Shown here: positions 3,636 to 22,260 of the stretch, piece by piece | How positions within the stretch are numbered: the stretch's first letter is position 1 | How the letters are laid out: every line of letters starts with the position of its first letter | Origin: a virus | Direction: 5' to 3' (one strand) | DNA length: 23,334 bases | Virus genome (UHGV): UHGV-0335559 | The notes under the pieces: model-generated | Told to the model about the DNA's origin: nothing | Database searches by the model: none | The model's input: only the letters and a program-made list of their open reading frames with translations | Program-made: the position numbers and the translations under genes

Positions 3636-3639
3636 GGTT

Positions 3640-4619: not shown

Positions 4620-4685
4620 AACGGGAAGGATGCCGCCGGGTCATACCGGCGGCAATGTGACGATGAGGTGTCAGGAATGGCACAA

Positions 4686-5138: not shown

Positions 5139-5598
5139 CCCACTTGCTCACCAGTTCGCCATTGATATAAAGCTTCATCGGGCGGGTGACCGGCTCCGGC
5201 GGCGTGGGTTCCGGGATATTCTTCACATGCAGCGCGCCGTCCACCTCACTGACCAGCGTGCGTTCGGTCAGCATCAGGCTGATGCTGATATCAAAGCTGC
5301 TGTCATTGTTGATGTCTGCATAAAACGTGAAGCCCTTTTTCTGGCCTTCGTCGGTGGTCATGATGTCGGGCTGATTTTCCCGCAGCCACGCCAGCACCGG
5401 CACGATGAGCAGGTCAAAATCACCGGTAAAGTCGGTCACAATCACATTGAGCGTGTAACGCTTTTCGAATGACAGCGACGTCGCCAGTGTGGAGGCAATA
5501 CTCCCGTTATCCACGAATATCCGCAGCATCTCTGGACTGGTTTTCAGCACCGTGACGGCATCAGTCAGCGCCCTGCGCAGGCTGTCGGGTTTGAGCAT
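5131..5598 (-). CDS. R: Tail completion protein gpR
   Basis: 155-aa ORF; length and order match P2 gpR; overlaps S by 8 nt. Confidence 0.85.
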   Translation of the reverse strand: MLKPDSLRRALTDAVTVLKTSPEMLRIFVDNGSIASTLATSLSFEKRYTLNVIVTDFTGDFDLLIVPVLAWLRENQPDIMTTDEGQKKGFTFYADINNDSSFDISISLMLTERTLVSEVDGALHVKNIPEPTPPEPVTRPMKLYINGELVSKWDE

Positions 5599-5851
5599 CG
5601 TTTTCGTCCTGACAGTGTTTAATCATTTTTACCTGGCTGGCACAGCGTGCCAGCGCGTTCTCAAGCTGCCGGATATCGGCACTTAAATCGCCGTTCGTCT
5701 CCGGGTCACTGCCCGGCATCGGGCAAAGACTCACTTTCGGGCAGGCGTTGGCGACAATCACTGGCGTCAGTGCAGGCCGGACGCTGGTGCAACCGGCGCA
5801 CAGCATCAGGCAGGTCAGCGCCGTACCAGCGGCGAAAATCTTCGTTTTCAT
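5561..5851 (-). CDS. lysC: Outer-membrane spanin lipoprotein (LysC/Rz1-like), embedded out of frame in lysB and running into R
   Basis: Internal Met of the 109-aa ORF gives MKTKIFAAGTALTCLMLCAGC..., a signal peptide with lipobox cysteine, followed by a Pro-rich mature part. 96 aa, as I recall for P2 LysC. Start chosen at the internal Met, not the ORF-track start. Confidence 0.7.
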   Translation of the reverse strand: MKTKIFAAGTALTCLMLCAGCTSVRPALTPVIVANACPKVSLCPMPGSDPETNGDLSADIRQLENALARCASQVKMIKHCQDENDAQTRQPAQGAD

Positions 5852-6131
5852 TAAGTAACCTCGTGATGGTTTTCTCGCGCTGTGCTTCACGCTTCGCGGC
5901 GTTCTCCAGTTCCTGACGCAGTGCTACCTGCGCCAGCTCGTTTTTGTCTGCCCTGGTGAGGGCAACATGAAGCTGATTTTTCAGCATGGTGATGGTCGTC
6001 TGCTGCCCGTTGGCGACGTTGCTCGCCCTGTCCAGTGAGGTGCGCAGGCTGGCGTTTTCATGCTTCGCCAGAAACAGACCGGCCACCGCCAGTGATAACA
6101 ACACAACCAGCACAATCATCAGCTTTGACAT
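5706..6131 (-). CDS. lysB: Inner-membrane spanin (LysB/Rz-like)
   Basis: 141-aa ORF with N-terminal TM segment (MSKLMIVLVVLLSLAVAGLFLA) and a coiled-coil-like, charged remainder. Position after lysA. Confidence 0.8.
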   Translation of the reverse strand: MSKLMIVLVVLLSLAVAGLFLAKHENASLRTSLDRASNVANGQQTTITMLKNQLHVALTRADKNELAQVALRQELENAAKREAQREKTITRLLNENEDFRRWYGADLPDAVRRLHQRPACTDASDCRQRLPESESLPDAGQ

Positions 6132-6544
6132 GGTTCCCGCCCCTCAAAACGCTGACGACAGGCCGTGCGTATCAGCCGGAAGAACACCGACGCCACGAGG
6201 TAAATCAGCGCGGTAAAAATCCACCCGGCAGCGACCAGCGAGATAAACGTCGCCACCATCACCACCAGAGCCGCCGCCCGTCTGCGCCACGGCACCGGCT
6301 GCAAAAACAGCGACGCGACAATCTTCACGGCCAGCGATTCCGGCGGCAGCTCCCGCCCGTAGCGTTCCAGCACATACTCAGTGGCATACACGCCGACACC
6401 ACCGGCAACCACACAGATAACCGTCGCCAGAATCGCCCAGGCGGCGACAAAATTGACGGCCACGCTCTGCGGGTAAATCAGGGACAGTGCCAGCATCAGC
6501 GCCAGCGACACGTTCAGCATCAGTGAAAGGGATAATTTCTTCAT
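6119..6544 (-). CDS. lysA: LysA membrane protein (lysis timing/holin-associated)
   Basis: 141-aa ORF with several hydrophobic segments; sits between K and lysB as in P2. Confidence 0.75.
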   Translation of the reverse strand: MKKLSLSLMLNVSLALMLALSLIYPQSVAVNFVAAWAILATVICVVAGGVGVYATEYVLERYGRELPPESLAVKIVASLFLQPVPWRRRAAALVVMVATFISLVAAGWIFTALIYLVASVFFRLIRTACRQRFEGREPCQS

Positions 6545-6558
6545 GGTGTTTACTCCGT

Positions 6559-7056
6559 TTAAGCCGGTACGCCGCCAGCGGTACGCCAGACGGTGACCAG
6601 TTTTTCCAGTGAATGCTCACGCTGACCGTAACCGGCACCCGGCAGGGACGCCCAGATATTGCGACAGCGTGAAATGGCGCGCTCAATGCGTCCCGCCCGG
6701 ATGTCATCCAGTGCACCGCGTTCGCGGATCAACTGAATGGCGAGTCTGTCCTGTGACAACGGGCTGAAATCAGGCAGGGCAAGCTGTTTACGGTAGTGCG
6801 GCCAGAACAGGTAAAGCTGCTGATAGCGACCGGAGGCCGTGGATTTTTCACCGCGACGGTTAAACACCTTCGCCGGTCGGCCATGTGCGAACGGGTGGTC
6901 ACTGTAGTCGGTGAAAATTTCCGGCTTTCCGTCCAGTCCGGTGACTATCACGTCATAGCCCCGGTTTTTCGTCAGCGGATGATTCGCCGTCCCTTCGGAC
7001 ACGGCCAGCATGTCGAGAAAGGCGGCGATATTCTGATGCGTGTTAATTACCGGCAT
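6559..7056 (-). CDS. K: Endolysin (lysozyme-like, P2 gpK)
   Basis: 165-aa ORF MPVINTHQNIAAFLDMLAVSEGT...; phage lysozyme-like N-terminus. Its start overlaps the stop of the holin gene. Confidence 0.9.
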   Translation of the reverse strand: MPVINTHQNIAAFLDMLAVSEGTANHPLTKNRGYDVIVTGLDGKPEIFTDYSDHPFAHGRPAKVFNRRGEKSTASGRYQQLYLFWPHYRKQLALPDFSPLSQDRLAIQLIRERGALDDIRAGRIERAISRCRNIWASLPGAGYGQREHSLEKLVTVWRTAGGVPA

Positions 7057-7337
7057 TACGGTTTCCCCCTGCCCTTAAAACGGCGCTGAATGGCAATCTC
7101 AATCACCTGATAGCCGGCGATACCCAGCATGGAGCCGATGCCGCACACCGCAGGCAGTGACAGGTCAGGAAACTGCACCAGAACAACACCGGCAACCATC
7201 GAGACAAAACCACCGAGCAACATGCGCCCGATAAACAGACGCGGGGTGATGGGTTCACCACCGGCAAGCACCTTGCCGACAACAATCAGCACCCCAATCA
7301 TGAAAAGCGACAGGACGCTTTTTTCTTCTGCTGTCAT
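7056..7337 (-). CDS. Y: Holin (P2 gpY)
   Basis: 93-aa ORF with hydrophobic TM segments and a charged C-terminus; immediately upstream of the endolysin gene. Confidence 0.85.
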   Translation of the reverse strand: MTAEEKSVLSLFMIGVLIVVGKVLAGGEPITPRLFIGRMLLGGFVSMVAGVVLVQFPDLSLPAVCGIGSMLGIAGYQVIEIAIQRRFKGRGKP

Positions 7338-7340
7338 GCG

Positions 7341-7544
7341 TTACTCCCACAGATTGACAGTTTCAGCCACGGGCGCGGTCTGAACGTCGGGCAGTTCGAC
7401 GGCGGTGCCGTGCGGCAGCACCGCACCCAGTTCAGCCAGTCCCGGATTTGCGGCGAGCACGGCCTCGACCACGCCCTCAGTGCGCCCGTAATACCGGACA
7501 CAGATGGCGTCGAGCGTGTCGCCCTGTAGCGCAAAGGTCTTCAT
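7341..7544 (-). CDS. X: Tail protein gpX (LysM-like)
   Basis: Internal start MKTFALQGDTLDAICVRYYGRTEGVV... gives 67 aa. The ATG overlaps the L stop by 1 nt (ATGA). The longer ORF-track start at 7613 was not used. Confidence 0.85.
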   Translation of the reverse strand: MKTFALQGDTLDAICVRYYGRTEGVVEAVLAANPGLAELGAVLPHGTAVELPDVQTAPVAETVNLWE

Positions 7545-8053
7545 CAGATTTGACTCACAATGCAGCGCGGCTTGTCCTGGATTCGCGCCACTGCCCAGCG
7601 CATATCCCGCCACAGCTCATCAATGGTGCTGTCAATGCTGTCGGCCTTCTTGTCGCCTTTCGCACTGGCATCCACGCCGCGATAACGCTCATAAAGCGAT
7701 GCGGTCGCCATCGCACACACGGCGCGCTCGTAGTAAAAAACTTTGATGCTTTCACCGTCGATGTCGTCCGCCGGGACGTCCGCCAGACGCGTAAAACCGG
7801 CGGCAATTTTCTGTTCGCGGTACTCGTACAGCTCCGCATTCGTCTCCGCCATGCCTGACTTGATGGCCTCACGCAGACGGGCGGGGGCGACGGTCTGCTC
7901 AAGGCGCATACGTTCCCGGACGCGCTTCGGGTCGATATCGGGAAAAAAGAACGTGTTTTTAATCACCGGCTCGTCGCCTGCCGGTTGCGGGATGACCACC
8001 GTACCCTCACCGGACACGGGAGCCTCCTTTCGCGGAATAATCAGCGTCATCAT
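7544..8053 (-). CDS. L: Head completion protein gpL
   Basis: Internal start MMTLIIPRKEAPVSGEGT... gives 169 aa, matching P2 gpL as I recall it. The longer ORF-track start at 8113 was not used. Confidence 0.85.
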   Translation of the reverse strand: MMTLIIPRKEAPVSGEGTVVIPQPAGDEPVIKNTFFFPDIDPKRVRERMRLEQTVAPARLREAIKSGMAETNAELYEYREQKIAAGFTRLADVPADDIDGESIKVFYYERAVCAMATASLYERYRGVDASAKGDKKADSIDSTIDELWRDMRWAVARIQDKPRCIVSQI

Positions 8054-8152
8054 GACTACCTCTGAAAAGTCGGGCGGTGGACGCCGGTGCAGTGTCAGGT
8101 GATTCACCGTCACTGACCGGCGTGCCGCCCTGGCGCGGGGCGCATTCGGTTG

Positions 8153-8896
8153 TTAACTGGCTTTCTTTTTCGGGCGTCCACGTTTTGCCGGTGTCACGCT
8201 CCGGGTCTTACGCGGGGCGCGGGGGGACGCTTTGGGCTGCGGCTCCGGCTTCGGTTTCATCTCCCGCTCCAGTCGTTCAATCTCTTTTTTGACGCCTGCC
8301 TGACAGTCGAGCTGTGTCGCACGTTGCAGGTGCGCCAGCGCACCGGCGGCATCACCACCGTCACGCAGAAACAGACCGGTGATTTTGTGCAGCTTTGCGC
8401 GCACTTCATCAGGCATGTCAGCCGTGGCAGTCAGTTCAAGGGTGTCCGTCAGCAGGCGGGTATCCACAGACTCACCGGCAGCGTGGGCGCGCATGGCCGC
8501 AAGTGCCACCTCCTCGGTGAACATGTACGGCGGGGTACGGCGGTGTTTACCCGGCATGGTCAGACCGTATTTCAGGGCATAACGGGCAATCTCCAGCGCA
8601 CCGGCAATATCGCCGGTATCCAGACGCCACAGCATGACCGTCATCAGAATGTCATCCTGTGCACCTTTGCCCTGCTCCAGCACGCCGTTCACCCACGGCA
8701 ACCAGAACGGCAGCAGTTCGCGTTTTTTCGCGGCTTTCAGCTCTTTTGAATAAATCGCTTTCAGTGTGCGCTGGTCTGCGGCCAGCTTGACCAGCATCTG
8801 CTCATAGACAGTTGCATGTCGCAGCGGGGCGGCTTCCCGCTGCGCGGTCATCGCTGCCGAGACCCGCATCATGTGGCGCTGTGCGGGACTCGTCAT
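8153..8896 (-). CDS. M: Terminase endonuclease (small) subunit gpM
   Basis: 247-aa ORF; sequence (MTSPAQRHMMRVSAAMTAQREA...) is very close to P2 gpM as I recall it, with a basic C-terminal tail. Confidence 0.9.
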   Translation of the reverse strand: MTSPAQRHMMRVSAAMTAQREAAPLRHATVYEQMLVKLAADQRTLKAIYSKELKAAKKRELLPFWLPWVNGVLEQGKGAQDDILMTVMLWRLDTGDIAGALEIARYALKYGLTMPGKHRRTPPYMFTEEVALAAMRAHAAGESVDTRLLTDTLELTATADMPDEVRAKLHKITGLFLRDGGDAAGALAHLQRATQLDCQAGVKKEIERLEREMKPKPEPQPKASPRAPRKTRSVTPAKRGRPKKKAS

Positions 8897-8899
8897 CGG

Positions 8900-9973
8900 T
8901 TACGCTCCCGGCTCTGCGGTCGCTTTAGCCGGTGTGGAGAAATCACCGACCTTAATTTTTTCCACCAGACAACCGGCGGCGTAGTCTTCCACCACGTAAT
9001 CAATGTTCATTGACTCGTAGTTCTCCACGCGGTCGAGTTTCGGGTTTTCCTCAATCACGCGGCGATGGCTGTCATCCATGTAGTAGATGGACAGGTTTTC
9101 CAGCTTCGTGATGAGCATCGCATCTGCCGGGAAGTACGGGACGCGCACTGCCGGCAGGTTACCGATGCGTTTCTGGCTGATGATGACGTCAGCGGCCAGC
9201 ATTTCGCTGTTGTCCTGCTCCCTGTTGACGATGGGGAAATACTTGTCCGCCAGTAGCTGACGCCCCACAATCACCACAAGGTCAGGGTCTTCCTGATACC
9301 ACGGCTCAATCAGGTTGTTGGTCGCATCCATCACCAGTGCATCGAGGCTGGCATAATCACCGCCCTTACCCACGCGGATGACCTCAGAGGTCGTGTGACC
9401 TTCCTCGTCAGTAACCTTGCTCATCACGCGCGCCGGGGCTTCATTGCGGTATTTCTGCAGCCAGCCGACCGCCACATCCTGCAGCATCTGGTTACTGCTG
9501 CGGTCAGAGGTTTCGGCACGCCTCACGCCGTTAAAACCGGCCATGATTAAATCAAGGGACTGGCGTTTGATAATGGCGTTACGGACACGGAGCTGGAAAT
9601 CCTGATAACGCGCCCACAGGTCCAGCGTTTTGTAGCGGATATAAAAATCGAAGTTAATCTGGTCGCATTCGTACTTGTTTGACGCCAGCTTCGAGAAGTC
9701 CTTCGGCTGACGCTCGGTGCCACCGGCGGTGTCGGTGGTGCTGGCGATGGAGCCGGTGACACCGATGCCAATTTTTTCCCCTTTCATTTCGCTGACCGGC
9801 ACAATATTGATGCGGGTCAGAAAGTCAGAGGACTCCTGCATGGTGTTCATCAGGGTCTGGGTGACCGACGGTTCAACGGTGAATTTTTTCGACACATCAC
9901 CGGCGTCGATGCCGTTCAGTTCGGCAACACGGGACAGGTAGGCATTAAATTTAAAGCGGGTTTCCTGGCGCAT
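8900..9973 (-). CDS. N: Major capsid protein gpN
   Basis: 357-aa ORF, length and position match P2 gpN. Confidence 0.9.
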   Translation of the reverse strand: MRQETRFKFNAYLSRVAELNGIDAGDVSKKFTVEPSVTQTLMNTMQESSDFLTRINIVPVSEMKGEKIGIGVTGSIASTTDTAGGTERQPKDFSKLASNKYECDQINFDFYIRYKTLDLWARYQDFQLRVRNAIIKRQSLDLIMAGFNGVRRAETSDRSSNQMLQDVAVGWLQKYRNEAPARVMSKVTDEEGHTTSEVIRVGKGGDYASLDALVMDATNNLIEPWYQEDPDLVVIVGRQLLADKYFPIVNREQDNSEMLAADVIISQKRIGNLPAVRVPYFPADAMLITKLENLSIYYMDDSHRRVIEENPKLDRVENYESMNIDYVVEDYAAGCLVEKIKVGDFSTPAKATAEPGA

Positions 9974-10031
9974 AGTTTTTCCTGAAATTAAGGGTTAATC
10001 GTGAAGGTTTTCCCGGACTGGCTGACGCCGG

Positions 10032-10886
10032 TCAGCAGTTCGTCATCAGGGCGTCACCGCCACCACCGGTGGCCTTGCTGCGGCGCTGCTGGGTCAGACT
10101 TTCGGTGTGGTCGAGACTGTTTTTCAGGCGGGTGAATGCCTGGCTGGTTTCATCCGCCCTGTCAGTCACATCCTGCTTAAGTGCGGAAAAAGCGGTTTCC
10201 ATCTCAGCGAGGCGCTGCTCAGTGGCGCTCAGTTTTTCCTGCACATGTTCAGCAACAGCGGTCACCGCTTCATGCACGTCATTCAGACGGGCGTCATCGC
10301 TGGCCTGTTTGCGGCCAAAAATGGACTTCACCTTTTCGGTCAGGGCGGTGAACACGGTTTCAGGCAGGTCTTCAAATTCCAGCTCAACGGGCGTTGCCAC
10401 TGAAATCAGGTTTTCAGGGCTTAATTTGAAGCGGTTCAGGGGGTTGTGTTTTGCCGTGCGGCAGAATTCCAGGTATTCCGTGCCGAGGCTTGCCGGGTCA
10501 TCGGTGACGGCCAGACCCACCAGATAACATTTGCCGGTGTTGGCAAAGTTCGGCTGAATTTCCATTGAGGTGTAGACCTTCTGCGCGGCCTTGTTCATCG
10601 CGATAAGGTCATCGGTCGGGGTGATTTTCGCAAACAGCGCCCATTTGCCTTTCAGCGCCGAATCATCGTCAATCTTTTCGGCCTTCAGTTCGACCACATC
10701 GCCATAACGCTTAAAAATACCGTCAGGCAGGATGCCGCGCAGATGTTCCAGGTTAATGCGGCAACCATAGACTCGCGGGTCAAAGGTTTCGGCCATTTCC
10801 TGAATATCCTGCGCACTGATGACACGCCCGTCACAGGTGTCACCCTCAACGCCGATACGAAAGAATTTTGATGCTTTTTTTGCCAT
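10032..10886 (-). CDS. O: Capsid scaffolding protein gpO
   Basis: Start set at internal MAKKASKFFRIGVEGDTCDGRVISAQDIQEM..., the P2 gpO N-terminus as I recall it, giving 284 aa. The ORF-track start at 10952 is an upstream in-frame extension. Confidence 0.9.
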   Translation of the reverse strand: MAKKASKFFRIGVEGDTCDGRVISAQDIQEMAETFDPRVYGCRINLEHLRGILPDGIFKRYGDVVELKAEKIDDDSALKGKWALFAKITPTDDLIAMNKAAQKVYTSMEIQPNFANTGKCYLVGLAVTDDPASLGTEYLEFCRTAKHNPLNRFKLSPENLISVATPVELEFEDLPETVFTALTEKVKSIFGRKQASDDARLNDVHEAVTAVAEHVQEKLSATEQRLAEMETAFSALKQDVTDRADETSQAFTRLKNSLDHTESLTQQRRSKATGGGGDALMTNC

Positions 10887-11059
10887 TGTCAGGAGTCCTG
10901 AATAGTGATTAGAGGAGTCACATGTCGGCATCAGTTTCCCGACGATGCGCATCCTCCGCCATCAGTCCCGGATGGCTTATCACTGACACAACAGCACCTT
11001 AGCGAATCGCGGGACGCGACTCAGTAGCCTTGCCGTGTATTCATCACGGCGAGGTATTC
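10887..11059. promoter_or_regulatory. Divergent late-promoter region between O and P
   Basis: 173-bp gap between divergently transcribed O and P, as in P2 where the Ogr-activated late promoters lie. I could not find a clean TGT-N12-ACA dyad by eye, so exact elements are unassigned. Confidence 0.35.
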
Positions 11060-12829
11060 ATGACCATCACCACAGACACCACTCTTTTACACGACCCGCG
11101 TCGTCAGGCGGCGCTGCTGTACTGGCAGGGGTTTTCCGTGCCGCAGATTGCCGCCATGTTGCAGATGAAACGCCCGACGGTGCAGAGCTGGAAACAGCGC
11201 GACGGCTGGGACAGCGTTGCCCCCATCAGCCGTGTCGAAATGAGTCTGGAAGCGCGGCTGACCCAGCTCATCATCAAACCGCAGAAAACCGGCGGTGACT
11301 TCAAGGAAATTGACCTGCTCGGACGCCAGATTGAACGACTGGCACGGGTCAACCGTTACAGTCAGACCGGCAACGAGGCAGACCTTAATCCGAACGTCGC
11401 TAACCGCAACAAAGGCGGGCGTCGCAAACCGAAAAAGAATTTTTTCAGTGACGAGGCCATCGAAAAGCTGGAGCAGATTTTCTTTGAGCAGTCTTTCGAA
11501 TATCAGTTGCACTGGTATCGCGCCGGGCTTGAGCACCGCATCCGCGATATCCTGAAATCCCGCCAGATTGGCGCAACGTTTTATTTTTCCCGCGAGGCGC
11601 TGCTGCGCGCCCTGAAAACCGGTCATAACCAGATTTTTCTGTCGGCCAGTAAAACGCAGGCGTATGTGTTCCGCGAATACATCATCGCCTTTGCCCGGCT
11701 GGTTGACGTTGACCTGACCGGTGACCCGATTGTCCTGGGCAATAACGGCGCAAAACTGATTTTTCTCGGCACCAACTCCAACACCGCACAGAGCCATAAC
11801 GGTGACCTGTACGTCGACGAGATTTTCTGGATCCCGAATTTTCAGGTACTGCGTAAGGTGGCATCAGGTATGGCCTCACAGAGTCACCTGCGCTCGACCT
11901 ATTTCTCCACCCCGTCCACGCTGGCGCACGACGCCTATCCGTTCTGGTCGGGTGAACTGTTCAACCGGGGACGCGCCAGCGCCGCCGAACGCGTGGAAAT
12001 CGACGTCAGTCATAACGCCCTTGCCGGTGGGCTTCTCTGTGCGGACGGCCAGTGGCGGCAGATTGTCACCATTGAGGACGCCCTGAAAGGTGGCTGCACG
12101 CTGTTCGACATTGAGCAGCTTAAACGCGAAAACAGCGCCGACGATTTTAAAAACCTGTTCATGTGTGAATTTGTTGACGACAAGGCGTCGGTATTCCCGT
12201 TCGAGGAGCTGCAGCGCTGCATGGTCGATGTGATGGAGGAATGGGAGGACTTTGCCCCGTTCGCCGACCATCCGTTCGGCTCTCGTCCTGTCTGGATTGG
12301 CTACGACCCGTCACACACCGGCGACAGTGCCGGGTGCGTCGTGCTCGCGCCGCCGGTGGTCTCTGGTGGCAAGTTCCGCATGCTGGAGCGCCACCAGTGG
12401 AAGGGCATGGATTTTGCAGCACAGGCAGAGGGCATCCGCAAGCTGACCGAGAAATACAACGTCGAATACATCGGCATTGACGCAACCGGCCTCGGTCTCG
12501 GCGTGTTCCAGCTGGTGCGCTCATTTTACCCGGCGGCACGCGGCATCCGTTACACACCTGAAATGAAAACCGCAATGGTACTCAAGGCGAAAGACACCAT
12601 TCGCCGTGGCTGTCTGGAGTACGACGCCGGAGCAACCGACGTCACGCAGTCGTTTATGTCCATCCGCAAAACCATGACCAGCAGCGGGCGCTGCGCCACC
12701 TATGAGGCCAGCCGCACCGAGGAAGCCAGCCACGCCGATATCGCATGGGCGACCATGCACGCCCTGTTAAACGAACCGCTTTCTGCCGGTAGCGGCATGC
12801 AGCCTAAATCTATTCTGGAGTTCAACTAA
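11060..12829 (+). CDS. P: Terminase ATPase (large) subunit gpP
   Basis: Start set at MTITTDTTLLHDPRRQAALLYWQGF... with GAGG 7 nt upstream, giving 589 aa. The ORF-track start at 11030 lacks a ribosome binding site. Confidence 0.9.
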   Translation: MTITTDTTLLHDPRRQAALLYWQGFSVPQIAAMLQMKRPTVQSWKQRDGWDSVAPISRVEMSLEARLTQLIIKPQKTGGDFKEIDLLGRQIERLARVNRYSQTGNEADLNPNVANRNKGGRRKPKKNFFSDEAIEKLEQIFFEQSFEYQLHWYRAGLEHRIRDILKSRQIGATFYFSREALLRALKTGHNQIFLSASKTQAYVFREYIIAFARLVDVDLTGDPIVLGNNGAKLIFLGTNSNTAQSHNGDLYVDEIFWIPNFQVLRKVASGMASQSHLRSTYFSTPSTLAHDAYPFWSGELFNRGRASAAERVEIDVSHNALAGGLLCADGQWRQIVTIEDALKGGCTLFDIEQLKRENSADDFKNLFMCEFVDDKASVFPFEELQRCMVDVMEEWEDFAPFADHPFGSRPVWIGYDPSHTGDSAGCVVLAPPVVSGGKFRMLERHQWKGMDFAAQAEGIRKLTEKYNVEYIGIDATGLGLGVFQLVRSFYPAARGIRYTPEMKTAMVLKAKDTIRRGCLEYDAGATDVTQSFMSIRKTMTSSGRCATYEASRTEEASHADIAWATMHALLNEPLSAGSGMQPKSILEFN

Positions 12830-12830
12830 A

Positions 12831-13877
12831 ATGGGTAAACAAAAATCCCGTAAAGCCAACGCACAAAAGGCCAGCAAACCACAACAACTGACCGCCAGCG
12901 CACCGCCAAAAACGACAGCGTTCACCTTCGGCGAGCCGGTGCCGGTACTCGATAAGCGCGACATTCTGGATTACGTCGAGTGCATCAGTAACGGCAAATG
13001 GTACGAGCCGCCGGTCAGCTTCTCAGGGCTGGCAAAGAGCCTGCGCTCTGCCGTGCATCACAGCTCGCCAATTTATGTTAAGCGTAACGTGCTCGCGAGC
13101 ACCTACATTCCGCACCCGTTGTTATCCCGTCAGGATTTCAGCCGCTTTGCGCTCGATTATCTGGTGTTCGGTAACGCCTTTCTTGAGCAGCGCCACAGCG
13201 TCACCGGCCAGTTAATCAAACTGCTGGCCTCGCCAGCCAAATACACCCGACGCGGAGTCGACGATTCGATTTTCTGGTTTGTGGAAAACTTCACCCAGCC
13301 GCACGAGTTCGCGCCTGATACCGTGTTTCACCTGCTGGAGCCCGACATTAATCAGGAGATTTACGGTCTGCCGGAATATCTCAGCGCGCTTAATTCCGCT
13401 TGGCTGAATGAATCCGCGACGCTGTTCCGCCGCAAGTATTATCAGAACGGCGCGCACGCAGGCTACATCATGTATGTGACTGACCCGGCGCAGAGCGCGA
13501 CCGACGTCGAATCGCTGCGCGAGGCGATGCGCAACTCAAAAGGGCTCGGCAACTTTAAGAACCTGTTTTTCTACGCTCCCGGCGGAAAACCGGACGGCAT
13601 CAAAATCGTGCCACTGAGCGAGGTCGCCACAAAGGATGACTTTTTCAACATCAAGAAGGCCAGTGCCGCCGATCTGATGGACGCGCACCGCGTACCGTTC
13701 CAGCTCATGGGCGGCAAGCCCGAGAATATCGGTTCACTCGGTGATGTTGAGAAGGTGGCAAAGGTATTTGTGCGCAACGAGCTGTCGCCGCTACAGGACA
13801 GGTTCAGGGAGGTAAATGACTGGCTCGGCATGGAGGTCATCAGATTCAAAGAGTACACCCTCGACAACCCAGAATAA
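12831..13877 (+). CDS. Q: Portal (capsid vertex) protein gpQ
   Basis: 348-aa ORF starting 2 nt after the P stop; position and size match P2 gpQ. Confidence 0.9.
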   Translation: MGKQKSRKANAQKASKPQQLTASAPPKTTAFTFGEPVPVLDKRDILDYVECISNGKWYEPPVSFSGLAKSLRSAVHHSSPIYVKRNVLASTYIPHPLLSRQDFSRFALDYLVFGNAFLEQRHSVTGQLIKLLASPAKYTRRGVDDSIFWFVENFTQPHEFAPDTVFHLLEPDINQEIYGLPEYLSALNSAWLNESATLFRRKYYQNGAHAGYIMYVTDPAQSATDVESLREAMRNSKGLGNFKNLFFYAPGGKPDGIKIVPLSEVATKDDFFNIKKASAADLMDAHRVPFQLMGGKPENIGSLGDVEKVAKVFVRNELSPLQDRFREVNDWLGMEVIRFKEYTLDNPE

Positions 13878-13954: not shown

Positions 13955-14959
13955 ATGGGCGCGGAGATTAATATTTTGGAAACTGATTTTAAAATAACCC
14001 TCGAAGGTTTCGCTACTGAGCAAGAAGCAAATAATATCGGTAATTTCACACTAGAAGCTATCCGAGCTTTAACAAAAAATCTCAATCTTGATATCTCCAA
14101 ATTAAAATGCGTGATTGTTTCCTATAACTTCAGTGAAGCTCTTCAAAAGGTAACATCCTCTTACCAACACAAATCCCCTAGTTCATTTACCAATAGCAAA
14201 CAGGGCGCAGCCGTCGGGCAGTTAGTAACAAAAATTGGCAATGATGGGCTATGTGAAGAATATACCCTTGTGCTATCGATTGATTTTTTTGTTGAGCTTT
14301 TCAATGATGGTAGCTTCTTAAAACTGAAAGAAGAAGGATACCTCGCAGTCATCCATCGCATTCACCATGAATTAGTGCACGTACATGAAAAAAACTTACT
14401 AACATGCTTAGCCCAAAACTTTACAGTCAACGAGTATGGTAGCGCGCTTCTTATCTCAGCCACGCGTGCATGGTCTGAATATCTCGCTAATTACATGTCT
14501 TCGGGGTCTGCCCCTCAAGAAACTATCGATTTATTTTTAGAGAATCTTGACACTGTTGTAAATGAAGTATCTGACGAGATTGAAAAACTCATCTGGGGTT
14601 ATAAGTACGGTAATATTTCTCTGAATGACATGTATCTTGAAGTAAAAAAACGTATCAGGCTAATCATCAACTCTTATGCTTATGCGATGGGTTATGTCCA
14701 TTCTCTAAACATCAATATTAAAGAATACGATCCAAAGCTATCCCTTACACTATCCAACTCAAAGATAAGATATCAATTATCAGAATTAGGCATTGCTTTT
14801 CAGAATCTTTATGGGAAGTTTAATGACCAGCACATTACAGGTTTTGGTGATTTTCGGGAGATAACAATAATCATTGATGAAATATTCAAGCAGTTTGGGC
14901 TTGTTTTAGAGTGTCCCGATTGGTCTGGCGACGGTGAACTCTACATACATGTAAATTAG
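13955..14959 (+). CDS. Hypothetical cargo protein, 334 aa, HExxH motif (IHRIHHELVHVHEKN); no recognisable family
   Basis: Long uninterrupted ORF in an island of about one-third G+C (flanking phage genes are well above 50%). Sits between the portal gene and cos, where P2 as I recall it has only about 100 bp. No Walker A, no TM segment, no HTH that I can see. Confidence 0.6.
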   Translation: MGAEINILETDFKITLEGFATEQEANNIGNFTLEAIRALTKNLNLDISKLKCVIVSYNFSEALQKVTSSYQHKSPSSFTNSKQGAAVGQLVTKIGNDGLCEEYTLVLSIDFFVELFNDGSFLKLKEEGYLAVIHRIHHELVHVHEKNLLTCLAQNFTVNEYGSALLISATRAWSEYLANYMSSGSAPQETIDLFLENLDTVVNEVSDEIEKLIWGYKYGNISLNDMYLEVKKRIRLIINSYAYAMGYVHSLNINIKEYDPKLSLTLSNSKIRYQLSELGIAFQNLYGKFNDQHITGFGDFREITIIIDEIFKQFGLVLECPDWSGDGELYIHVN

Positions 14960-15178
14960 TTTAATCATAGTAGAAACATAATTAGCAGTTTGAATCCTGC
15001 CACTCCTGTAAAGCCGCTGCTCCTGGTGGCTTTTCCATGCACACCACCATCACGCATCAGATGCGTCTCACGCGCACGAACACACTCGACCACCAACGAA
15101 CCAGCAGCGACCACGACAGCGCCATCACGACGCGCTCAGAGGATAATTTTTATTATTACGCATCACTGCTGGCGCGCA

Positions 15179-15197
15179 ATGCTTTCCCCGCCACGCC
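15179..15197 (-). other. cos-like site (19-nt cohesive-end sequence of P2/186-type phages)
   Basis: Minus strand reads GGCGTGGCGGGGAAAGCAT, matching the 19-nt cohesive end as I recall it for 186 (P2: GGCGAGGCGGGGAAAGCAC). Its orientation relative to Q is the same as at the P2 left end. Confidence 0.55.
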
Positions 15198-15353
15198 TGC
15201 CCGCTTTATGGGGCGGTTTTAATGCAGTTGCATGACAACTCTGGATCCGCGCTAGCTCTGGCGGCGCACGGACAGAACGGGCAAGACTGACGCATGCAAA
15301 ACCATGCACCTAATGCATGCACGACTAAAAAACGGGAAATTCGCGGAAAAATG

Positions 15354-15390
15354 GCATAAAAAAACCGGCATTCAGGGTGCCGGTTTTAGT
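15354..15390. terminator. Bidirectional rho-independent terminator
   Basis: A-tract (15356-15364), 7-bp stem ACCGGCA (15364-15370) / TGCCGGT (15378-15384) with a 7-nt loop, then TTTT. U-runs follow the hairpin on both strands; it would end the minus-strand tum-like operon before cos. Confidence 0.55.
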
Positions 15391-15523
15391 CTGGTTTTGT
15401 CGCGATTAATGGCCGCGCAATGCGCCAATAACACTGTTGAGGCACATGCTGGCAACAATCATCAGAAAAATCGTCGTCCACGGATTTTCATAAACGATAG
15501 ATAACATATTTATATAGTTCCTC

Positions 15524-15808
15524 TTATTTGCGCATTCTGATGTGATTTAACAGGTGTTTGATAACGACTGATAGCTCATCTTTACCGGCCTGCTCGACCA
15601 TTTTTGCGGTGTAGCTTTCCACCTCGCGAGAGCTCAGGTCGTTATTTAAAGCCATTAAAGTCAGATTCTTTGCCCAATCGGCAAACGGGTCATTTTTCGA
15701 TGAAAGGGGATTTTGCATGTACAAAAACCTCGAATTATTTAACCAGCAGACGGTTGAAGTATTTGCGACGCTATGACCGGCTAACGCCTCGCGTAGCTCG
15801 TTGTTCAA
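15524..15808 (-). CDS. Hypothetical small protein (last gene of the SOS operon); start uncertain
   Basis: 94-aa ORF whose first codons lie inside repeat A. An internal Met at 15718 (MQNPLSSKND...) with GAGG upstream is the more likely start (64 aa). No recognisable family. Confidence 0.35.
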   Translation of the reverse strand: MNNELREALAGHSVANTSTVCWLNNSRFLYMQNPLSSKNDPFADWAKNLTLMALNNDLSSREVESYTAKMVEQAGKDELSVVIKHLLNHIRMRK

Positions 15809-15849
15809 CCCCGCCAGACCTGAAAGCGAGTTTCAGCTCCGGCGGCGTT
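15785..15849. repeat. 65-bp direct repeat, copy A (contains hairpin CTGAAA-GCGAG-TTTCAG)
   Basis: Aligns with 16190-16254 at roughly 85% identity, including identical blocks TTGTTCAACCCCGCCAG and CCGGCGGCGTT. Begins 2 nt after the stop of the 69-aa ORF on the minus strand. Confidence 0.75.
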
Positions 15850-15851
15850 AT

Positions 15852-16061
15852 CTATGGTCGACGTGGTGGCGGTGAGTAATGTGTCGGCTTGCTGATGCTA
15901 TCCAGCTTGCCGTAATTATCCCTGACTATTTCGGCACACCCGACCAGCTCGGCGGGTGTCAAATTCTCATTGACCATTATCTGCTGCAGACGATGAACGA
16001 TGGCCATCAGTTTGATGCTTTTAGTTTTGTGCTGCGGAATTTTGCCCGGTAGTCGATGCAT
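15852..16061 (-). CDS. Hypothetical 69-aa protein flanked by the two direct repeats
   Basis: ORF with GAGGG Shine-Dalgarno 7 nt upstream of the ATG at 16061. No recognisable family. Confidence 0.4.
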   Translation of the reverse strand: MHRLPGKIPQHKTKSIKLMAIVHRLQQIMVNENLTPAELVGCAEIVRDNYGKLDSISKPTHYSPPPRRP

Positions 16062-16189
16062 ATTATCGCCCTCAATGAATTTTATTTAGCGCTGCCACAG
16101 CGCCACTATAAAACCCGCTAAGGTAACGTCCCATTCATCACTGGTGTGTAACCAATAAAACATCGAGAAACTTTGAGAGGAAGAACTAG

Positions 16190-16254
16190 CGCCTCGCGGT
16201 GCGAGTTGTTCAACCCCGCCAGCACTGAAAGCAAGTTTCAGCACCGGCGGCGTT
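16190..16254. repeat. 65-bp direct repeat, copy B (contains hairpin CTGAAA-GCAAG-TTTCAG)
   Basis: Partner of 15785-15849; begins 2 nt after the stop of the DinI-like gene on the minus strand. Confidence 0.75.
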
Positions 16255-16256
16255 TG

Positions 16257-16490
16257 TTAATGCAGCCAGCTATCGTCCTCCCATACCTGCTGCATGATTT
16301 CCATTACTCGTTTTTTATCTTCGTCCAGTTTCAAACCGCTTAGTTCAACGCCATTAGCGGAGCCCTTGCGAATTCGGATAGCAGTCTTTGGGTAAATAGG
16401 TTGAAGATTGCGGTACAGTTCAGCCTCAAGTGCATCCAATGTTGCCTGACTAATTTTTTGCTCTTTATCCAACGTGATATTGATTCTCAT
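16257..16490 (-). CDS. DinI-like protein (DinI / 186 Tum C-terminal domain family)
   Basis: 77 aa, MRINITLDKEQKISQATLDALEAELYRNLQPIYP...VMEIMQQVWEDDSWLH; resembles E. coli DinI (MRIEVTIAK...ALAGELSRRIQ...) in pattern and length. Weak Shine-Dalgarno; the ATG is one codon after the in-frame stop of the upstream ORF. Confidence 0.75.
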   Translation of the reverse strand: MRINITLDKEQKISQATLDALEAELYRNLQPIYPKTAIRIRKGSANGVELSGLKLDEDKKRVMEIMQQVWEDDSWLH

Positions 16491-16493
16491 AAT

Positions 16494-16676
16494 CTAATCA
16501 GCCTTATAAAAATTATCATCTTCGGTTTCGTTATTTTCGCTGTTTGCTAGGTCTGCAATGAGAGTGAGCGCGAGCTTTAAGTCTGATGGCTTGCAGTTTG
16601 CAATCAGAGATACCTCGGCAATAAATTGCACACAAGCCCACTTTTGCTGCGTTCGGCTGAAATGTTCGCCAACCAT
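16494..16676 (-). CDS. Small protein, possible N-terminal (antirepressor) part of a Tum-like protein
   Basis: 60-aa ORF with strong Shine-Dalgarno (GGGAGGG) and a LexA box just upstream. Same reading frame as the DinI-like ORF, separated from it by a single TAG. Confidence 0.5.
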   Translation of the reverse strand: MVGEHFSRTQQKWACVQFIAEVSLIANCKPSDLKLALTLIADLANSENNETEDDNFYKAD

Positions 16677-16695
16677 GAAATCCCTCCCACAGGGT

Positions 16696-16715
16696 TACTG
16701 TATATTTATACAGTA
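16696..16715. promoter_or_regulatory. LexA box (SOS operator) overlapping the promoter of the tum/DinI-like operon
   Basis: TACTGTATATTTATACAGTA: CTGT (16698-16701), 8 nt, ACAG (16710-16713), one central mismatch to the consensus TACTGTATATATATACAGTA. Lies about 20 nt upstream of the start codon at 16676. Confidence 0.75.
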
Positions 16716-16789
16716 GCACGTATTGGCAAAAGATGGGAAGAAAAAAAACGAATAGAGCGATTGCTGTATGTGCATGATATGGATATGAA

Positions 16790-19012
16790 TTACCCATGTA
16801 TTGGTTTTGATGCTTCAGCCATCGCCGCAACACGATTAAGGATTTTCCGAGCTTTAGCCTCATGCGATGGTGCTGCGGAAAATATTTCTCCTTTGGCCGT
16901 TCCGCGTAGCCATTTACCATCAAAACAACTTTTACCACCGGCCATCAGGTGCAGGGCTTCGCCCCGGCTGATATTAATGCCGGTTGTCAGATGTATCTCA
17001 TCGATAGTTTTAGCTATAGCTGCGTTTTGCTCATCCGTTCCGTGGATGAATTTTCGCCGTGCTGCTGGCTTTTGCTTCCTGAGTCGGTTGGTCAATTCTC
17101 GTCTTTCACGCCGACTCAGTGGTTTTGTTAAATCCAGTATCGGTGGATCGCTTTCGCTTCCCGTACAGTTATTGACAGAACTCCGAGGGACGGCTTTGCC
17201 GTCCTGAAGGTCAACGGCCAAATCAACAGCACGCTTCGGAACAATCTTCCACTGAGTGAGCCGGGTTAAAATCGGGCTTCCTGCACCTATGGAGGAATCG
17301 TAGACCCCCTTAATACATACCGTTTCCTCACCGTACTGATTAAGCTCGGTGCGCGGTTCATACAGTGTGCGCACCTGTAAATCATCGCGACGGACAAACG
17401 GCCCACCCTGAGCATTAACATAACCAGCCCAGTCACCAGCGTCGGCGGCATCATGGACGGCGGCAAACTCAACGCTCAGACCGTGCGCGGTTTCGGTATC
17501 AGCGAGGCGACGCAACTCACGGTAAACCGTCACCGGCGCACCACCAATAAACTGAAACTGACGGATGTGCCAGCGCGCAGCCCATGCTGAAACGGCGGGG
17601 GCTGTCTCTTTCAGCAGCTCACCGCTTTCATCATCGGTTTCACCATCGAGAGCATAACCGTCGATATTTTTTGAAATGTATTTAGCAACATAGCCGGTTG
17701 CGCTGCCTTTCTCCGGGTCAATGGACTCGGCGTGGAAACGTGCTTTTTTGGATTTATCGCTTTTCAGTTCGTGGCGGTCTTCTTTCCATGCGTATTTACG
17801 GACGATGGAGCGAACATATTCAACATCTTCCGGCAGCATGAACATCAGCATGTGCCAGTGTGGAGTGCCGTCGTGATGGGGCTCGGCGACACGAATACCG
17901 AAAATACGGACATCTTCCCGATGTAGTTTGGCACGGATACGCGCCCAGATACCGGTTAGATAGTTTTGCGTGTCAGCCGGGCTGGCACCGCTCCATTTGC
18001 TGTTACGGTAACCGGCTTTAGTCGTGGCGTGATATTTTGACGGCGCGGTTAGAGTGTAAAACTCACCGACATAACCGAGCTCATTACAGATGTTTTCAAA
18101 CCCACGAATGCGGGTCATGAGCTCACAGCGGCGAATCGCAGGGTTAGCAACTGAGCCATCATATTTTTCAATTAGGCTGATACGGTTGCCGTCTTCGTCT
18201 TCGAGATCCAGACCTTTGAGAAATTCACGAGTGCGGCGCTTTTGTTCACGCCAGTCAGTCACGCAGTTTTTACTCGCGTAAGTGTTTTTTTTCTTACTGA
18301 CGTTGCCGACTGCAATTTGCAGGTGTTCGCGCCACGTAGCTGCAACACGGCGCAAACGACCGCGCCACCACCCATCGTTAAACATTTTGGCGATAGCCGG
18401 TGCGATTTCATCCGCACCGACATATTTTTTTTCAACCCGCTCCCAATGTGGTGGGATAACGTTGAATTGGAGGGAAATAAAGCCAGCACGAATATACCAG
18501 GTGTACAGCGTTTTAAGCTCGCCGAATCCGTGGTCATTAATGTTGGCAAGTTCACCACGAATGAAATTAGCAATATCAGCGGCCAACAGGTCAACATCAG
18601 CGCGCGACATGTCCGGGAGACGGTTATATTGGGCGACCATATTAACCATGCGTGACGACAGATATTGCATTTGCTGAGTATCAAAATGACTTCCAAAAAC
18701 AGCGGTTGATACCTTGCTGTTGATACCAGCGCATTCGTATTTTTTTGCGACCAGTTCAAGACGCGGCAATGCCTTTTTGCAGAAGCTGATTAAAAATGCA
18801 TTGGCTCGTTGACTACCCTGATTTTGCTCCAGCACCGCAGCAGTGCGATAAACATCTAACCGCACGCAGTCGGGCTGGAGAGAAAGCACCTTTTTTGCAT
18901 GCAGCAAAGCCGCGAACATACGGTCGCGGCGATGCTGTTGCTCATAAGTAAGGTATGGGCTGGAGATTGCCGACCGTGGGACGTTCCACGGATAAGCGAA
19001 TTGAACAGCCAA
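16790..19012 (-). CDS. A: Replication initiation endonuclease gpA (rolling-circle initiator)
   Basis: 740-aa ORF with HUH-type motif (EPHHDGTPHWHMLMF) and a tyrosine region (GYVAKYISKNIDGYALDG), as in the P2 A protein family. Confidence 0.9.
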   Translation of the reverse strand: MAVQFAYPWNVPRSAISSPYLTYEQQHRRDRMFAALLHAKKVLSLQPDCVRLDVYRTAAVLEQNQGSQRANAFLISFCKKALPRLELVAKKYECAGINSKVSTAVFGSHFDTQQMQYLSSRMVNMVAQYNRLPDMSRADVDLLAADIANFIRGELANINDHGFGELKTLYTWYIRAGFISLQFNVIPPHWERVEKKYVGADEIAPAIAKMFNDGWWRGRLRRVAATWREHLQIAVGNVSKKKNTYASKNCVTDWREQKRRTREFLKGLDLEDEDGNRISLIEKYDGSVANPAIRRCELMTRIRGFENICNELGYVGEFYTLTAPSKYHATTKAGYRNSKWSGASPADTQNYLTGIWARIRAKLHREDVRIFGIRVAEPHHDGTPHWHMLMFMLPEDVEYVRSIVRKYAWKEDRHELKSDKSKKARFHAESIDPEKGSATGYVAKYISKNIDGYALDGETDDESGELLKETAPAVSAWAARWHIRQFQFIGGAPVTVYRELRRLADTETAHGLSVEFAAVHDAADAGDWAGYVNAQGGPFVRRDDLQVRTLYEPRTELNQYGEETVCIKGVYDSSIGAGSPILTRLTQWKIVPKRAVDLAVDLQDGKAVPRSSVNNCTGSESDPPILDLTKPLSRRERRELTNRLRKQKPAARRKFIHGTDEQNAAIAKTIDEIHLTTGINISRGEALHLMAGGKSCFDGKWLRGTAKGEIFSAAPSHEAKARKILNRVAAMAEASKPIHG

Positions 19013-21066: not shown

Positions 21067-21912
21067 ATGTCTAAAAATGATGTTAATGCGTCTGCCGCAT
21101 TGGAACGTGTCCTTTCTGCATACGGCTTTAAGCAGCAAAAGGAACTAGCCGAAAGGCTTGGCATACATGCAAACAACGTGAGTAGCTGGCTTGCTAGAAA
21201 CGTAATCCCTAGCAACGTTTTCGTTGAGTGTGCTCTTGATACTGGAGCTGACCTGCGATGGCTAATTAATGGTGAGCTTGCAAATGCAAGATTTGAAGTG
21301 GTGAAAACTAAGCTTAAAGGTAAGCAACTCTATGATGAAATCATGGCAAATGGAGGGAGGGCGGTTCTGCGTCGGATTCTCGATGCGTATGGTTTTACTC
21401 TGCAAAAAGAGCTTGGAGATTTATTAGGTATATCTTCCGGCACTATAAGCACTTGGGTTAGACGCGATTTTTTCCCCGGTGACGTGGTTGTCACTTGCGC
21501 CCTTGATACTGGCGTATCGTTAGAATGGTTATCAACCGGAAAAGGCCAGATGCGTAACAGTAATGATGGTGAACCGGCAAATGCTTTAACGATTAGAAAG
21601 TGCCGCCTCGAGGCTGGCGAACTCAAAGATATCGGACGCTGGACTCCTGATATATCTATGGTTCCATCAAATACTGATGATTTAGTGTTTATTGATGGTG
21701 TGAGCACATCTTGGCTTGTTGATAGTTCTAACTCGAAGATAGGAAATGGTCGCTGGCTTATTGGTATTGATGGCGCACTCGATGTTTTTGACGTAATCAG
21801 GTTGCCAGGCGGAAAGGTAAGGTTATCAAATAAGTCTGCTGAGTTTGAATGTAATATTTCAGATATCACACCATCAGGTGCGGTTATTTTTACTTTGGAA
21901 AAGCATGTTTAA
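21067..21912 (+). CDS. cI: CI-type immunity repressor with tandemly duplicated N-terminal HTH domain
   Basis: Start set at MSKNDVNASAALERVLSAYGF... (281 aa). Two homologous ~85-aa repeats (...AYGFKQQKELAERLGI...CALDTGADLRWLINGE / ...AYGFTLQKELGDLLGI...CALDTGVSLEWLSTGK), then a C-terminal domain (...RLPGGKVRLSNKSAEFECNISDI...) resembling the 186 CI C-terminal domain as I recall it. Confidence 0.75.
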   Translation: MSKNDVNASAALERVLSAYGFKQQKELAERLGIHANNVSSWLARNVIPSNVFVECALDTGADLRWLINGELANARFEVVKTKLKGKQLYDEIMANGGRAVLRRILDAYGFTLQKELGDLLGISSGTISTWVRRDFFPGDVVVTCALDTGVSLEWLSTGKGQMRNSNDGEPANALTIRKCRLEAGELKDIGRWTPDISMVPSNTDDLVFIDGVSTSWLVDSSNSKIGNGRWLIGIDGALDVFDVIRLPGGKVRLSNKSAEFECNISDITPSGAVIFTLEKHV

Positions 21913-21921: not shown

Positions 21922-22260
21922 ATGAAAAAGTTTATATTTGCGATAGTCTGCATTGCACTTTCTTCCTCAGCCATAGCCGCTGAGAAGTTTAAAGAGATAG
22001 ACGGCGCTGCATATGGTGACAAGTGGCCTCTAACCTTTGAAAAGGCAAAGGTATCATGTGTTAACCGTGCTTATGCTTTTGTGTATGACATCAAAACTGA
22101 TGATAGATATCCTCTGAATGGCATGGCGGTAGATGCTGTTAAATCAGGAAAGCTGGAGGGGTCTAACTTAGATGACGTATGGAAGGATGACCCTGAGTAT
22201 GACGGCGTTAAAATTTCAATTTCACCGGTGATTGATGCCGCTACAGCCCTTTGTAATTAA
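21922..22260 (+). CDS. Small secreted protein (112 aa) between cI and int; possible lysogenic-conversion gene
   Basis: AAGGAG Shine-Dalgarno 7 nt upstream; N-terminal signal peptide MKKFIFAIVCIALSSSAIAAEKF; one Cys near each end of the mature part. Confidence 0.6.
   Translation: MKKFIFAIVCIALSSSAIAAEKFKEIDGAAYGDKWPLTFEKAKVSCVNRAYAFVYDIKTDDRYPLNGMAVDAVKSGKLEGSNLDDVWKDDPEYDGVKISISPVIDAATALCN

Follow-up and report, generated by a model that had tools for sequence, protein, structure and literature searches.

In phage 186, the promoter p95 lies between gene A and cos. It has a -35 hexamer TTCACA and a -10 hexamer TACTGT at 29044-29049, and a LexA site occupying 29044-29063 starts at this -10 hexamer. 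Behind the LexA site follow tum, the partial terminator t95a, orf97 and t95b, which terminates the p95 transcript. According to PMC7708051, the LexA site acts on an SOS-dependent promoter. Work cited in PMC7708051 and PMC3121763 has Tum binding the CI repressor and blocking its binding to operators, with tum being needed for induction by UV or mitomycin C. The 186 Tum is a single 146-aa protein, and internal starts in its gene also give a DinI-only product.

The Salmonella phage PSP3 (GenBank AY135486), which belongs with its relatives SW9, SI22 and SEN1 to the genus Eganvirus, provides a variant of this arrangement. In PSP3 and in Fels-2 a stop codon splits the tum coding region (Lemire et al. 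2011, PMC3121763). The PSP3 record annotates tumA as 'similar to 5' end 186 tum; UV induction of prophage' and tumB as 'similar to dinI and 3' end of 186 tum'. The assignment of the antirepressor in PSP3 to the upstream gene is attributed to a personal communication in Bunny et al. 2002, which is relayed second-hand in PMC3121763. For a P2-like prophage of E. coli HS, either deletion of tum or a non-cleavable lexA abolished induction by mitomycin C (preprint PMC11195241). The Gifsy proteins GfoA and GftA represent a further case, in which LexA represses a small antirepressor of a non-cleavable repressor and a dinI homologue is part of the same operon (PMC3121763). The same logic of a LexA-controlled antirepressor applies to AntC of N15 and to the locus described here, but the antirepressor and repressor families of Gifsy and N15 are unrelated to those that we encountered, and these phages are of the lambdoid or N15 type and not P2-like.

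In P2 itself (genus Peduovirus), the interval from gene A to cos is occupied by orf91, tin and old. P2 has neither a tum gene nor a LexA box, and its repressor is the 99-aa C protein, which is accompanied by Cox. Phage P2 is not UV-inducible.

Here we analysed a stretch of viral DNA of 23,334 nucleotides (23.3 kb; hereafter the window). We read its region between gene A and cos as the operon for SOS induction of a temperate prophage of E. coli, in which P2-type late genes are joined to a 186/PSP3-type early region, and assign to this reading a probability of roughly 0.85. By analogy with 186, PSP3 and the E. coli HS prophage we infer that LexA binds at this locus, that TumA interacts with CI and that the prophage is inducible. 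The split tumA/tumB arrangement is already present in GenBank and in the literature, and the mechanism is familiar from the studies of 186 and PSP3. The features of the region, in the order in which they occur on the minus strand, are as follows.

16790-19012, minus strand: replication gene A, P2 gpA/186 A family (PF05840, 2.4e-130; 83% nucleotide identity to 186 gene A).
16734-16739, minus strand: predicted -35 hexamer TTCCCA of a p95-like promoter, placed by homology to TTCACA of 186.
16710-16715, minus strand: predicted -10 hexamer TACTGT, positioned from the homologous 186 p95, where the hexamer is identical.
16696-16715, TACTGTATAAATATACAGTA on the minus strand: predicted LexA operator (SOS box), from its consensus match and conservation.
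16682-16688, minus strand: Shine-Dalgarno sequence GGGAGGG, separated by 5 nt from the ATG of tumA.
16494-16676, minus strand: tumA, 60 aa, ending in TAG (phrog_1993, hhalign and identity to PSP3 TumA).
16257-16490, minus strand: tumB, 77 aa, DinI family (PF06183, 186 Tum, structure 1GHH and the PSP3 TumB annotation).
15852-16061, minus strand: 69-aa ORF of the PSP3 gp37 family (phrog_11386, 1e-46; annotated in PSP3, SI22 and RefSeq).
15524-15718, minus strand: 64-aa ORF (phrog_2454, 1.5e-39; a RefSeq CDS).
15406-15507, minus strand: unannotated hydrophobic ORF of 33 aa, MLSIVYENPWTTIFLMIVASMCLNSVIGALRGH, closest of the ORFs to the terminator.
15358-15387, minus strand: intrinsic terminator with the stem AAAACCGGCA/TGCCGGTTTT and a 7-T run, homologue of 186 t95b.
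15179-15197, minus strand: cohesive end of cos, GGCGTGGCGGGGAAAGCAT, identical to bases 1-19 of phage 186, where they are annotated as cos.

As in 186, the box and operon are located between gene A and cos and are transcribed away from gene A, with all genes on the minus strand. The RefSeq annotation places the start of gene A at 18919 and names its product 'replication endonuclease'. On the minus strand gene A is followed by a T-rich stretch and the promoter region, and its stop codon is situated 75 nt upstream of the LexA box.

The sequence-only reading had described TACTGTATATTTATACAGTA at 16696-16715 as a near-consensus LexA box of the form CTGT-N8-ACAG, and a sequence check of the window recovered exactly this 20-mer at these positions. 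It is the single occurrence of CTGT-N8-ACAG in the 23.3-kb window. Compared with the full LexA consensus TACTGTATATATATACAGTA, as used in PMC8072944, the box matches at 19 of 20 positions; the one mismatch is central and both arms are perfect. The start codon at 16676 was likewise said to lie about 20 nt from the box behind a ribosome binding site, and we measured 19 nt from the end of the box to the tumA ATG (16676-16674) and found GGGAGGG at 16688-16682.

The loose CTGT-N8-ACAG pattern has a chance expectation of 0.21 in the window and was found in 21 of 100 shuffles. This frequency, together with the placement of a palindromic box just after gene A, would be compatible with an AT-rich inverted repeat that arose by chance or serves another use, such as a gene A terminator, and that has no LexA role. 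However, none of the 100 shuffles contained a site with three or fewer mismatches to the 20-mer consensus TACTGTATATATATACAGTA, and an AT-rich 8-bp stem with a 4-nt loop and no T-run after it would make a poor terminator. The distribution of the box also argues against this explanation. Among 79 TumA-encoding loci from IMG/VR (TumA relatives at 78-100% identity), 78 carry CTGT-N8-ACAG at -39 to -42 from the tumA start, and the lone exception has a single mismatch in one arm of the box. Across the 69 unique upstream sequences, conservation is 90% or higher in both arms, with most arm positions invariant, and the centre and flanks of the box are variable. The box also occurs upstream of Tum genes in species genomes across Enterobacterales. 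Since the site is in addition homologous to the LexA site on the SOS-dependent promoter of 186, we consider a palindrome without a LexA role to be hardly credible.

The comparison with 186 extends over the whole promoter. From the T-run through TTTTGCCAATACGTGCTACTGTAT and ATACAGTA the two sequences are almost identical, the arms of the box are the same and only its central bases differ. Judged from sequence, the site is thus the homologue of the LexA operator on phage 186 p95, and the palindrome is confirmed as a near-perfect LexA (SOS) operator, with predicted LexA binding, on the promoter of a small antirepressor gene. The box covers the homology-placed -10 hexamer and hence overlaps the predicted core promoter, so that bound LexA would occlude this hexamer. 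The -35 hexamer TTCCCA is weak (4/6), and with TACTGT it amounts to 7/12 consensus positions, compared with 8/12 in the proven 186 p95. A generic sigma-70 promoter scan of 15000-17200 at a threshold of 9/12 called no promoter; we do not count this against the promoter, because the proven 186 p95 (TTCACA/TACTGT, 8/12) also falls below that threshold. An alternative promoter, formed by TTGCCA at 16729-16724 and AAATAT 16 nt downstream, was considered as well, and with either promoter the box would overlap the -10 region.

The two genes directly behind the operator correspond to the two parts of 186 Tum. The tumA and tumB reading frames are in the same frame and are separated by the TAG stop codon of tumA (16496-16494) and one ATT codon. 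TumA aligned end to end with phrog_1993 (1e-31), which is also matched by residues 1-61 of 186 Tum (2e-23). In an hhalign comparison, TumA matched an alignment of the N-terminal part of 186 Tum that was built from fetched loci (E = 6e-6, 85% probability). The shared core comprises a hydrophobic helix, a cysteine and acidic residues, followed by (L/I)AL-x-LIA-x-(L/I)A. BLASTP produced no alignment between TumA and 186 Tum, so the homology was seen only by PHROG profiles and hhalign. TumA belonged to no Pfam or NCBIfam family and matched no solved structure, neither TumA nor the small ORFs gave a hit in Pfam, NCBIfam or PADLOC, and RefSeq labels TumA a hypothetical protein.

TumB is readily recognized as a member of the DinI family. 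It matched positions 2-63 of the 63 in PF06183 (7e-24; 84.3 bits at a cut-off of 24.2), shares 47% identity with residues 71-145 of 186 Tum and matched the structure of E. coli DinI (1GHH, 2.6e-9). Its score of 52 bits against the NCBIfam equivalog for chromosomal DinI is below the cut-off of 111 bits, indicating a DinI paralogue and not DinI itself. The profile and hhalign matches of TumA and the identity of TumB to 186 Tum together identify the two ORFs as the two halves of 186 Tum.

Both the N-terminal and the DinI-like part of Tum are therefore present in 186 and in the window, but relative to 186 the window tum has lost a 36-nt linker and gained a stop codon between the halves. The earlier proposal that the locus follows the tum arrangement of 186 holds for the p95 homology, the position, the Tum-related genes and the 186-type CI. 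It needs refining for Tum itself, which in 186 is a single polypeptide fused to a DinI-like domain and in the window is split into TumA and TumB, as in the PSP3/Fels-2 variant. PSP3 has the same tumA-TAG-ATT-ATG-tumB layout behind a single LexA box, and its TumA is 98.3% identical to that of the window; across these phages TumA is 98-100% identical. Nucleotide identity to the PSP3 group is 92-93% over the promoter, box, tumA, tumB and gp37-like ORF (92.6% for PSP3 tumA/tumB). The best phage matches were the Salmonella phages SI22 and SW9 (92.4% over 15400-17000), SEN1 and PSP3. PSP3 differs in having gp38 before cos, where the window has other ORFs, and in its late genes, which in the window are P2-type. 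Its host is Salmonella, compared with E. coli for the window element.

The 186 antirepressor is the full-length 146-aa fusion, which raises the question of whether antirepression requires the DinI-like part, either in a 186-like full-length Tum made by read-through of the TAG or as TumB itself. The conservation of the junction could be taken in this sense: in 47 of 48 loci the DinI-like gene starts in frame, 6 or 9 nt past the tumA stop, and the tumA stop is TAG in every locus with a visible DinI-like ATG just after it. However, the shared reading frame can be explained by common descent of close relatives. TumA behaves as an independent module: each of the 79 loci encodes it as a separate ORF of ~60 aa, with a DinI gene behind it in 48 of them, and in the other 31 TumA and the LexA box occur with no DinI gene. 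This pattern fits TumA, and not DinI, as the essential induction function. It also agrees with the literature, which assigns antirepressor activity to the upstream gene of PSP3 (PMC3121763).

The E. coli HS prophage provides further evidence on this point. The primers given in PMC11195241 map to a 62-aa ORF behind the LexA box, so that the deletion abolishing induction was confined to this small upstream ORF and spared the dinI-like gene behind it. The HS locus resembles that of the window in its Tum of ~60 aa, its LexA box, its separate dinI-like gene and the hairpin plus box element described below. HS Tum nevertheless represents a different subfamily (phrog_698) that is linked to the window TumA mainly through 186 Tum: hhalign related HS Tum to the 186 Tum N-terminus with E = 4e-6, compared with E = 0.004 and 8% probability for HS Tum and TumA directly. 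In addition, the box of HS-type loci is at -61 instead of -39, and between tum and dinI lie a TGA stop and 10 nt instead of a single in-frame TAG. Taking these observations together, we think it very improbable that the DinI-like part is needed for antirepression, and favour TumA alone as the putative antirepressor.

The presumed target of TumA is encoded on the opposite strand.

21067-21912, plus strand: immunity repressor CI (PF07022 twice, 1.5e-47; PF16452, 4.6e-19).

This CI combines a tandem pair of 186-type HTH domains with the C-terminal domain of 186 CI, and it matched the 186 CI structures 2FJR (4e-21) and 2FKD. It is of the same family as 186 CI but only 32% identical to it, and differs in its duplicated HTH domain; the two-HTH type is common to the PSP3 group and the window. 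A 186-type CII is also present. The domain search found no S24 peptidase (Peptidase_S24) domain in CI, and for a CI lacking this self-cleaving domain an antirepressor is the expected route of induction.

The identity of CI is 74% to PSP3 CI and 91.5% to SI22 CI, so immunity may differ from that of PSP3. These values, set beside the 98-100% identity of TumA, leave room for a LexA-controlled operon that works without inducing the prophage, either because TumA does not recognize this CI or because the prophage is defective elsewhere. The SOS response would then do no more than turn on small cargo genes and a DinI-like modulator. The element is moreover a recombinant of P2-type and 186/PSP3-type parts, the window covers only part of the prophage, and in the Salmonella P2-like prophage BTP5 tum was expressed but no infectious phage was obtained (PMC7067206). 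The phage collection speaks for a matched pair. It holds exactly 10 records with this TumA and exactly 10 with a CI at least 60% identical, and a comparison of names showed 7 of them to be the same phages; in all 10 phage records that have either TumA or this CI type the two occur together, and several of these are isolated, viable phages. The early region from CI through tum is also contiguous and of a single PSP3/SW9-like origin. As to defects elsewhere, the window region is 100% identical to part of a prophage adjoining yfiB in E. coli 1008S13 (NZ_CP147053), which has a full P2-type gene set annotated in the portion of the annotation covered. We hence regard an operon that operates without prophage induction as unlikely, and retain prophage induction as the probable function of the operon. 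The pairing of TumA in this mosaic with a CI that is 74% identical to PSP3 CI is a predicted match and not a proven one.

The mosaic make-up itself is clear from local blastn comparisons. The late genes (2298-13866) are P2-type and not 186-type, with 94-95% identity to P2 and 70-79% to 186. Conversely, identity to 186 is 83-95% in gene A, cII, the tum promoter and the cos flanks, and blastn gave no match of these segments to P2. The end of the operon follows the same pattern: 15198-15387 is 88% identical to 30434-30624 of 186, which contains t95b, identity is 86-88% over the final terminator and the flanks of cos, and the cos sequence does not differ. A strong terminator just before cos had been noted from the sequence, and it is borne out by the 7-T hairpin and by GGCGTGGCGGGGAAAGCAT at 15197-15179, which is identical to the 186 cos. 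These blastn identities, and the different locus and repressor of P2, show that the description of the element as P2-like head and tail genes combined with a 186-type induction circuit was correct. The tum region was matched in 260 of 5,426 complete E. coli genomes.

On this basis the following sequence of events can be proposed. In an undamaged lysogen host LexA would occupy the operator at 16715-16696 and, as the operator covers the -10 hexamer of the p95-type promoter, keep the operon silent. DNA damage would activate RecA, leading to self-cleavage of LexA and firing of the promoter. TumA would then bind the 186-family CI and stop it from binding its operators, and the resulting derepression of the early lytic promoter would allow prophage excision and lytic growth. 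TumB, the DinI homologue, most likely modulates the activity of the RecA filament and so tunes the SOS signal, and would not be the inducer. Transcription would continue through the three small ORFs to the t95b-type terminator just before cos.

It is predicted that E. coli prophages of this family, unlike P2, are inducible by DNA-damaging agents including quinolones and mitomycin C. This reading correctly identifies a known system, and its value is practical rather than conceptual. It exposes an annotation gap: with TumA absent from Pfam and NCBIfam and labelled 'hypothetical protein' in RefSeq, genome annotation alone misses the inducibility of these prophages.

Downstream of tumA the sequence-only reading had listed a DinI-like gene, which we recovered, and two small ORFs, of which there are three (69, 64 and 33 aa). 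This cargo differs from that of 186, where orf97 occupies the corresponding part of the transcript. The 33-aa ORF is retained with conservative substitutions in phage SI22 and is present in 16 of the 79 related loci.

A 69-nt direct repeat was observed in this part of the operon. Its two copies are 87% identical and follow the stop codons of tumB and of the 69-aa ORF.

16186-16254, minus strand: copy A, with its hairpin and GTTGAACAAC...GCGAGGCG box, immediately behind the stop codon of tumB.
15781-15849, minus strand: copy B, a hairpin plus box, directly after the stop codon of the 69-aa ORF.

On the tum strand the element forms a predicted AAC...GTT-closed hairpin of ~18 bp (a stem of ~15 bp plus the closing pairs; ~-37 kcal/mol). 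The hairpin is followed by a box of 30 nt, the invariant GTTGAACAAC-(GAGC/TCGC)-N3-5-GCGAGGCGTTAG, and neither window copy has a U-tract after the stem. In an alignment of 51 diverse copies the sequence of the stem varied freely while pairing was kept. Compensatory double changes were found at 16 of the 24 predicted pairs, all 16 of them inside the 18-pair hairpin. On the tum strand 97 G-U pairs were counted compared with 14 A-C pairs, an excess suggesting that selection acts on the tum transcript as RNA. The element is also strand-specific, with 59 copies on the tum strand and 1 on the other.

Judged from recognizable neighbour genes, the element is located 3' of gene A and the Tum/DinI genes and 5' of the portal gene on the opposite strand in nearly all of 100 further viral loci and in 28 of 29 species genomes across Enterobacterales. 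Phage 186 contains one unannotated copy between orf97 and t95b. Rfam gave no hit in the whole window at gathering thresholds and two chance-level matches only in 15300-16800 at E up to 1, and a full-text literature search for the element sequence returned only unrelated primer sequences.

Several known kinds of element were considered as candidates. An integron attC-like site is unlikely: AAC...GTTGAAC fits GTTRRRY, but the 5' side does not fit RYYYAAC, the annotated part contains no integron integrase gene, and the G-U asymmetry is further evidence against it. The same asymmetry argues against an antisense small RNA and against an antisense terminator.

We tentatively propose that the small cistrons of the LexA-driven transcript are exchangeable and form an array, punctuated by a structured RNA element not described before, although we hold this with well under even confidence. 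As part of this still doubtful array, the 33-aa ORF would be one cargo gene, encoding a membrane peptide made under SOS control. The element could possibly act as a signal for RNA processing, stabilization or attenuation that sets the output of downstream genes after SOS induction; alternatively, it may be a junction for swaps of cargo genes in the A-cos hotspot. In ~20 of the 51 aligned copies an ATG occurs within a few bases of GCGAGGCGTTAG, whose GAGG may therefore serve as a ribosome-binding site.

A conserved hairpin plus box element was found between cistrons of the minus-strand tum operon, the predicted LexA-controlled transcript between gene A and cos; it is present twice in the window and also in phage 186:

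16186-16254, minus strand: conserved intercistronic copy of the element
15781-15849, minus strand: conserved intercistronic copy of the element
30340-30419 of phage 186: the 186 copy

Each element consists of an approximately 18-bp hairpin closed by AAC...GTT, followed by the invariant box GTTGAACAAC-(GAGC/TCGC)-N3-5-GCGAGGCGTTAG. In an alignment of 51 copies the stem covaried strongly, with double compensatory changes at 16 of the 24 predicted pairs, and all 16 fell inside the 18-pair hairpin. The element is strand-specific; when read on the tum strand its pairs included 97 G-U as against 14 A-C. Wherever the neighbouring genes could be identified, it lay in the gene A-cos interval of P2/186-like prophages across Enterobacterales. 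Rfam holds no family for the element, and a literature search returned no match.

Within the same operon we examined the junction between tumA and the DinI-like gene tumB, where the tumA stop codon occupies 16494-16496. Among the 48 related loci that retain a DinI-like gene after tumA, all but one (47/48) have the two genes in one frame with a single stop and one (or two) sense codons between them, and this stop was TAG in every locus with a DinI-like start visible directly after it. No good Shine-Dalgarno sequence lies upstream of tumB, so ribosomes terminating on tumA probably go on to translate it. Read-through of the stop at a low level might also yield some TumA-TumB fusion resembling the single Tum protein of 186.

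Two further features lie in the gene A-cos interval:

15406-15507, minus strand: unannotated 33-aa hydrophobic ORF, MLSIVYENPWTTIFLMIVASMCLNSVIGALRGH
16755-16789, minus strand: conserved block of about 30 nt, TTCATATCCATATCATGCACATACAG, immediately 3' of the gene A stop codon

The 33-aa ORF is the final cistron ahead of the t95b-like terminator. Phage SI22 and 16 of the 79 loci encoding a TumA relative retain it with substitutions of the I/V/L type, and it could encode a small membrane peptide made upon SOS induction. The block after gene A has no obvious hairpin and is highly conserved among relatives including 186, where it is not annotated.

Two plus-strand ORFs follow portal gene Q:

13955-14959, plus strand: 334-aa ORF inserted between portal gene Q and cos
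15037-15222, plus strand: 61-aa 'hypothetical protein' WP_000557532.1 (RefSeq annotation)

The first occupies the region where P2-like phages carry variable cargo, and an HExxH motif (HHELVH) is present in it. It had no hit in Pfam, NCBIfam or PADLOC, its sole match being PHROG 11743, a family whose function is unknown. A role as a cargo or defence gene of metallopeptidase-like type is possible. WP_000557532.1 spans cos on the opposite strand and is probably a spurious gene call.

Farther along the plus strand are encoded:

21067-21912, plus strand: CI repressor
21922-22260, plus strand: secreted or lipoprotein-like DUF2511 protein of 112 aa, between cI and int

In CI the 186-type HTH DNA-binding domain is tandemly duplicated (PF07022 twice), N-terminal to the CI C-terminal domain. 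PSP3 CI shares this arrangement, whereas 186 CI has one HTH domain. The cI-int interval is a typical place for a lysogenic-conversion gene, and the DUF2511 protein is equivalent in position to PSP3 gp28.
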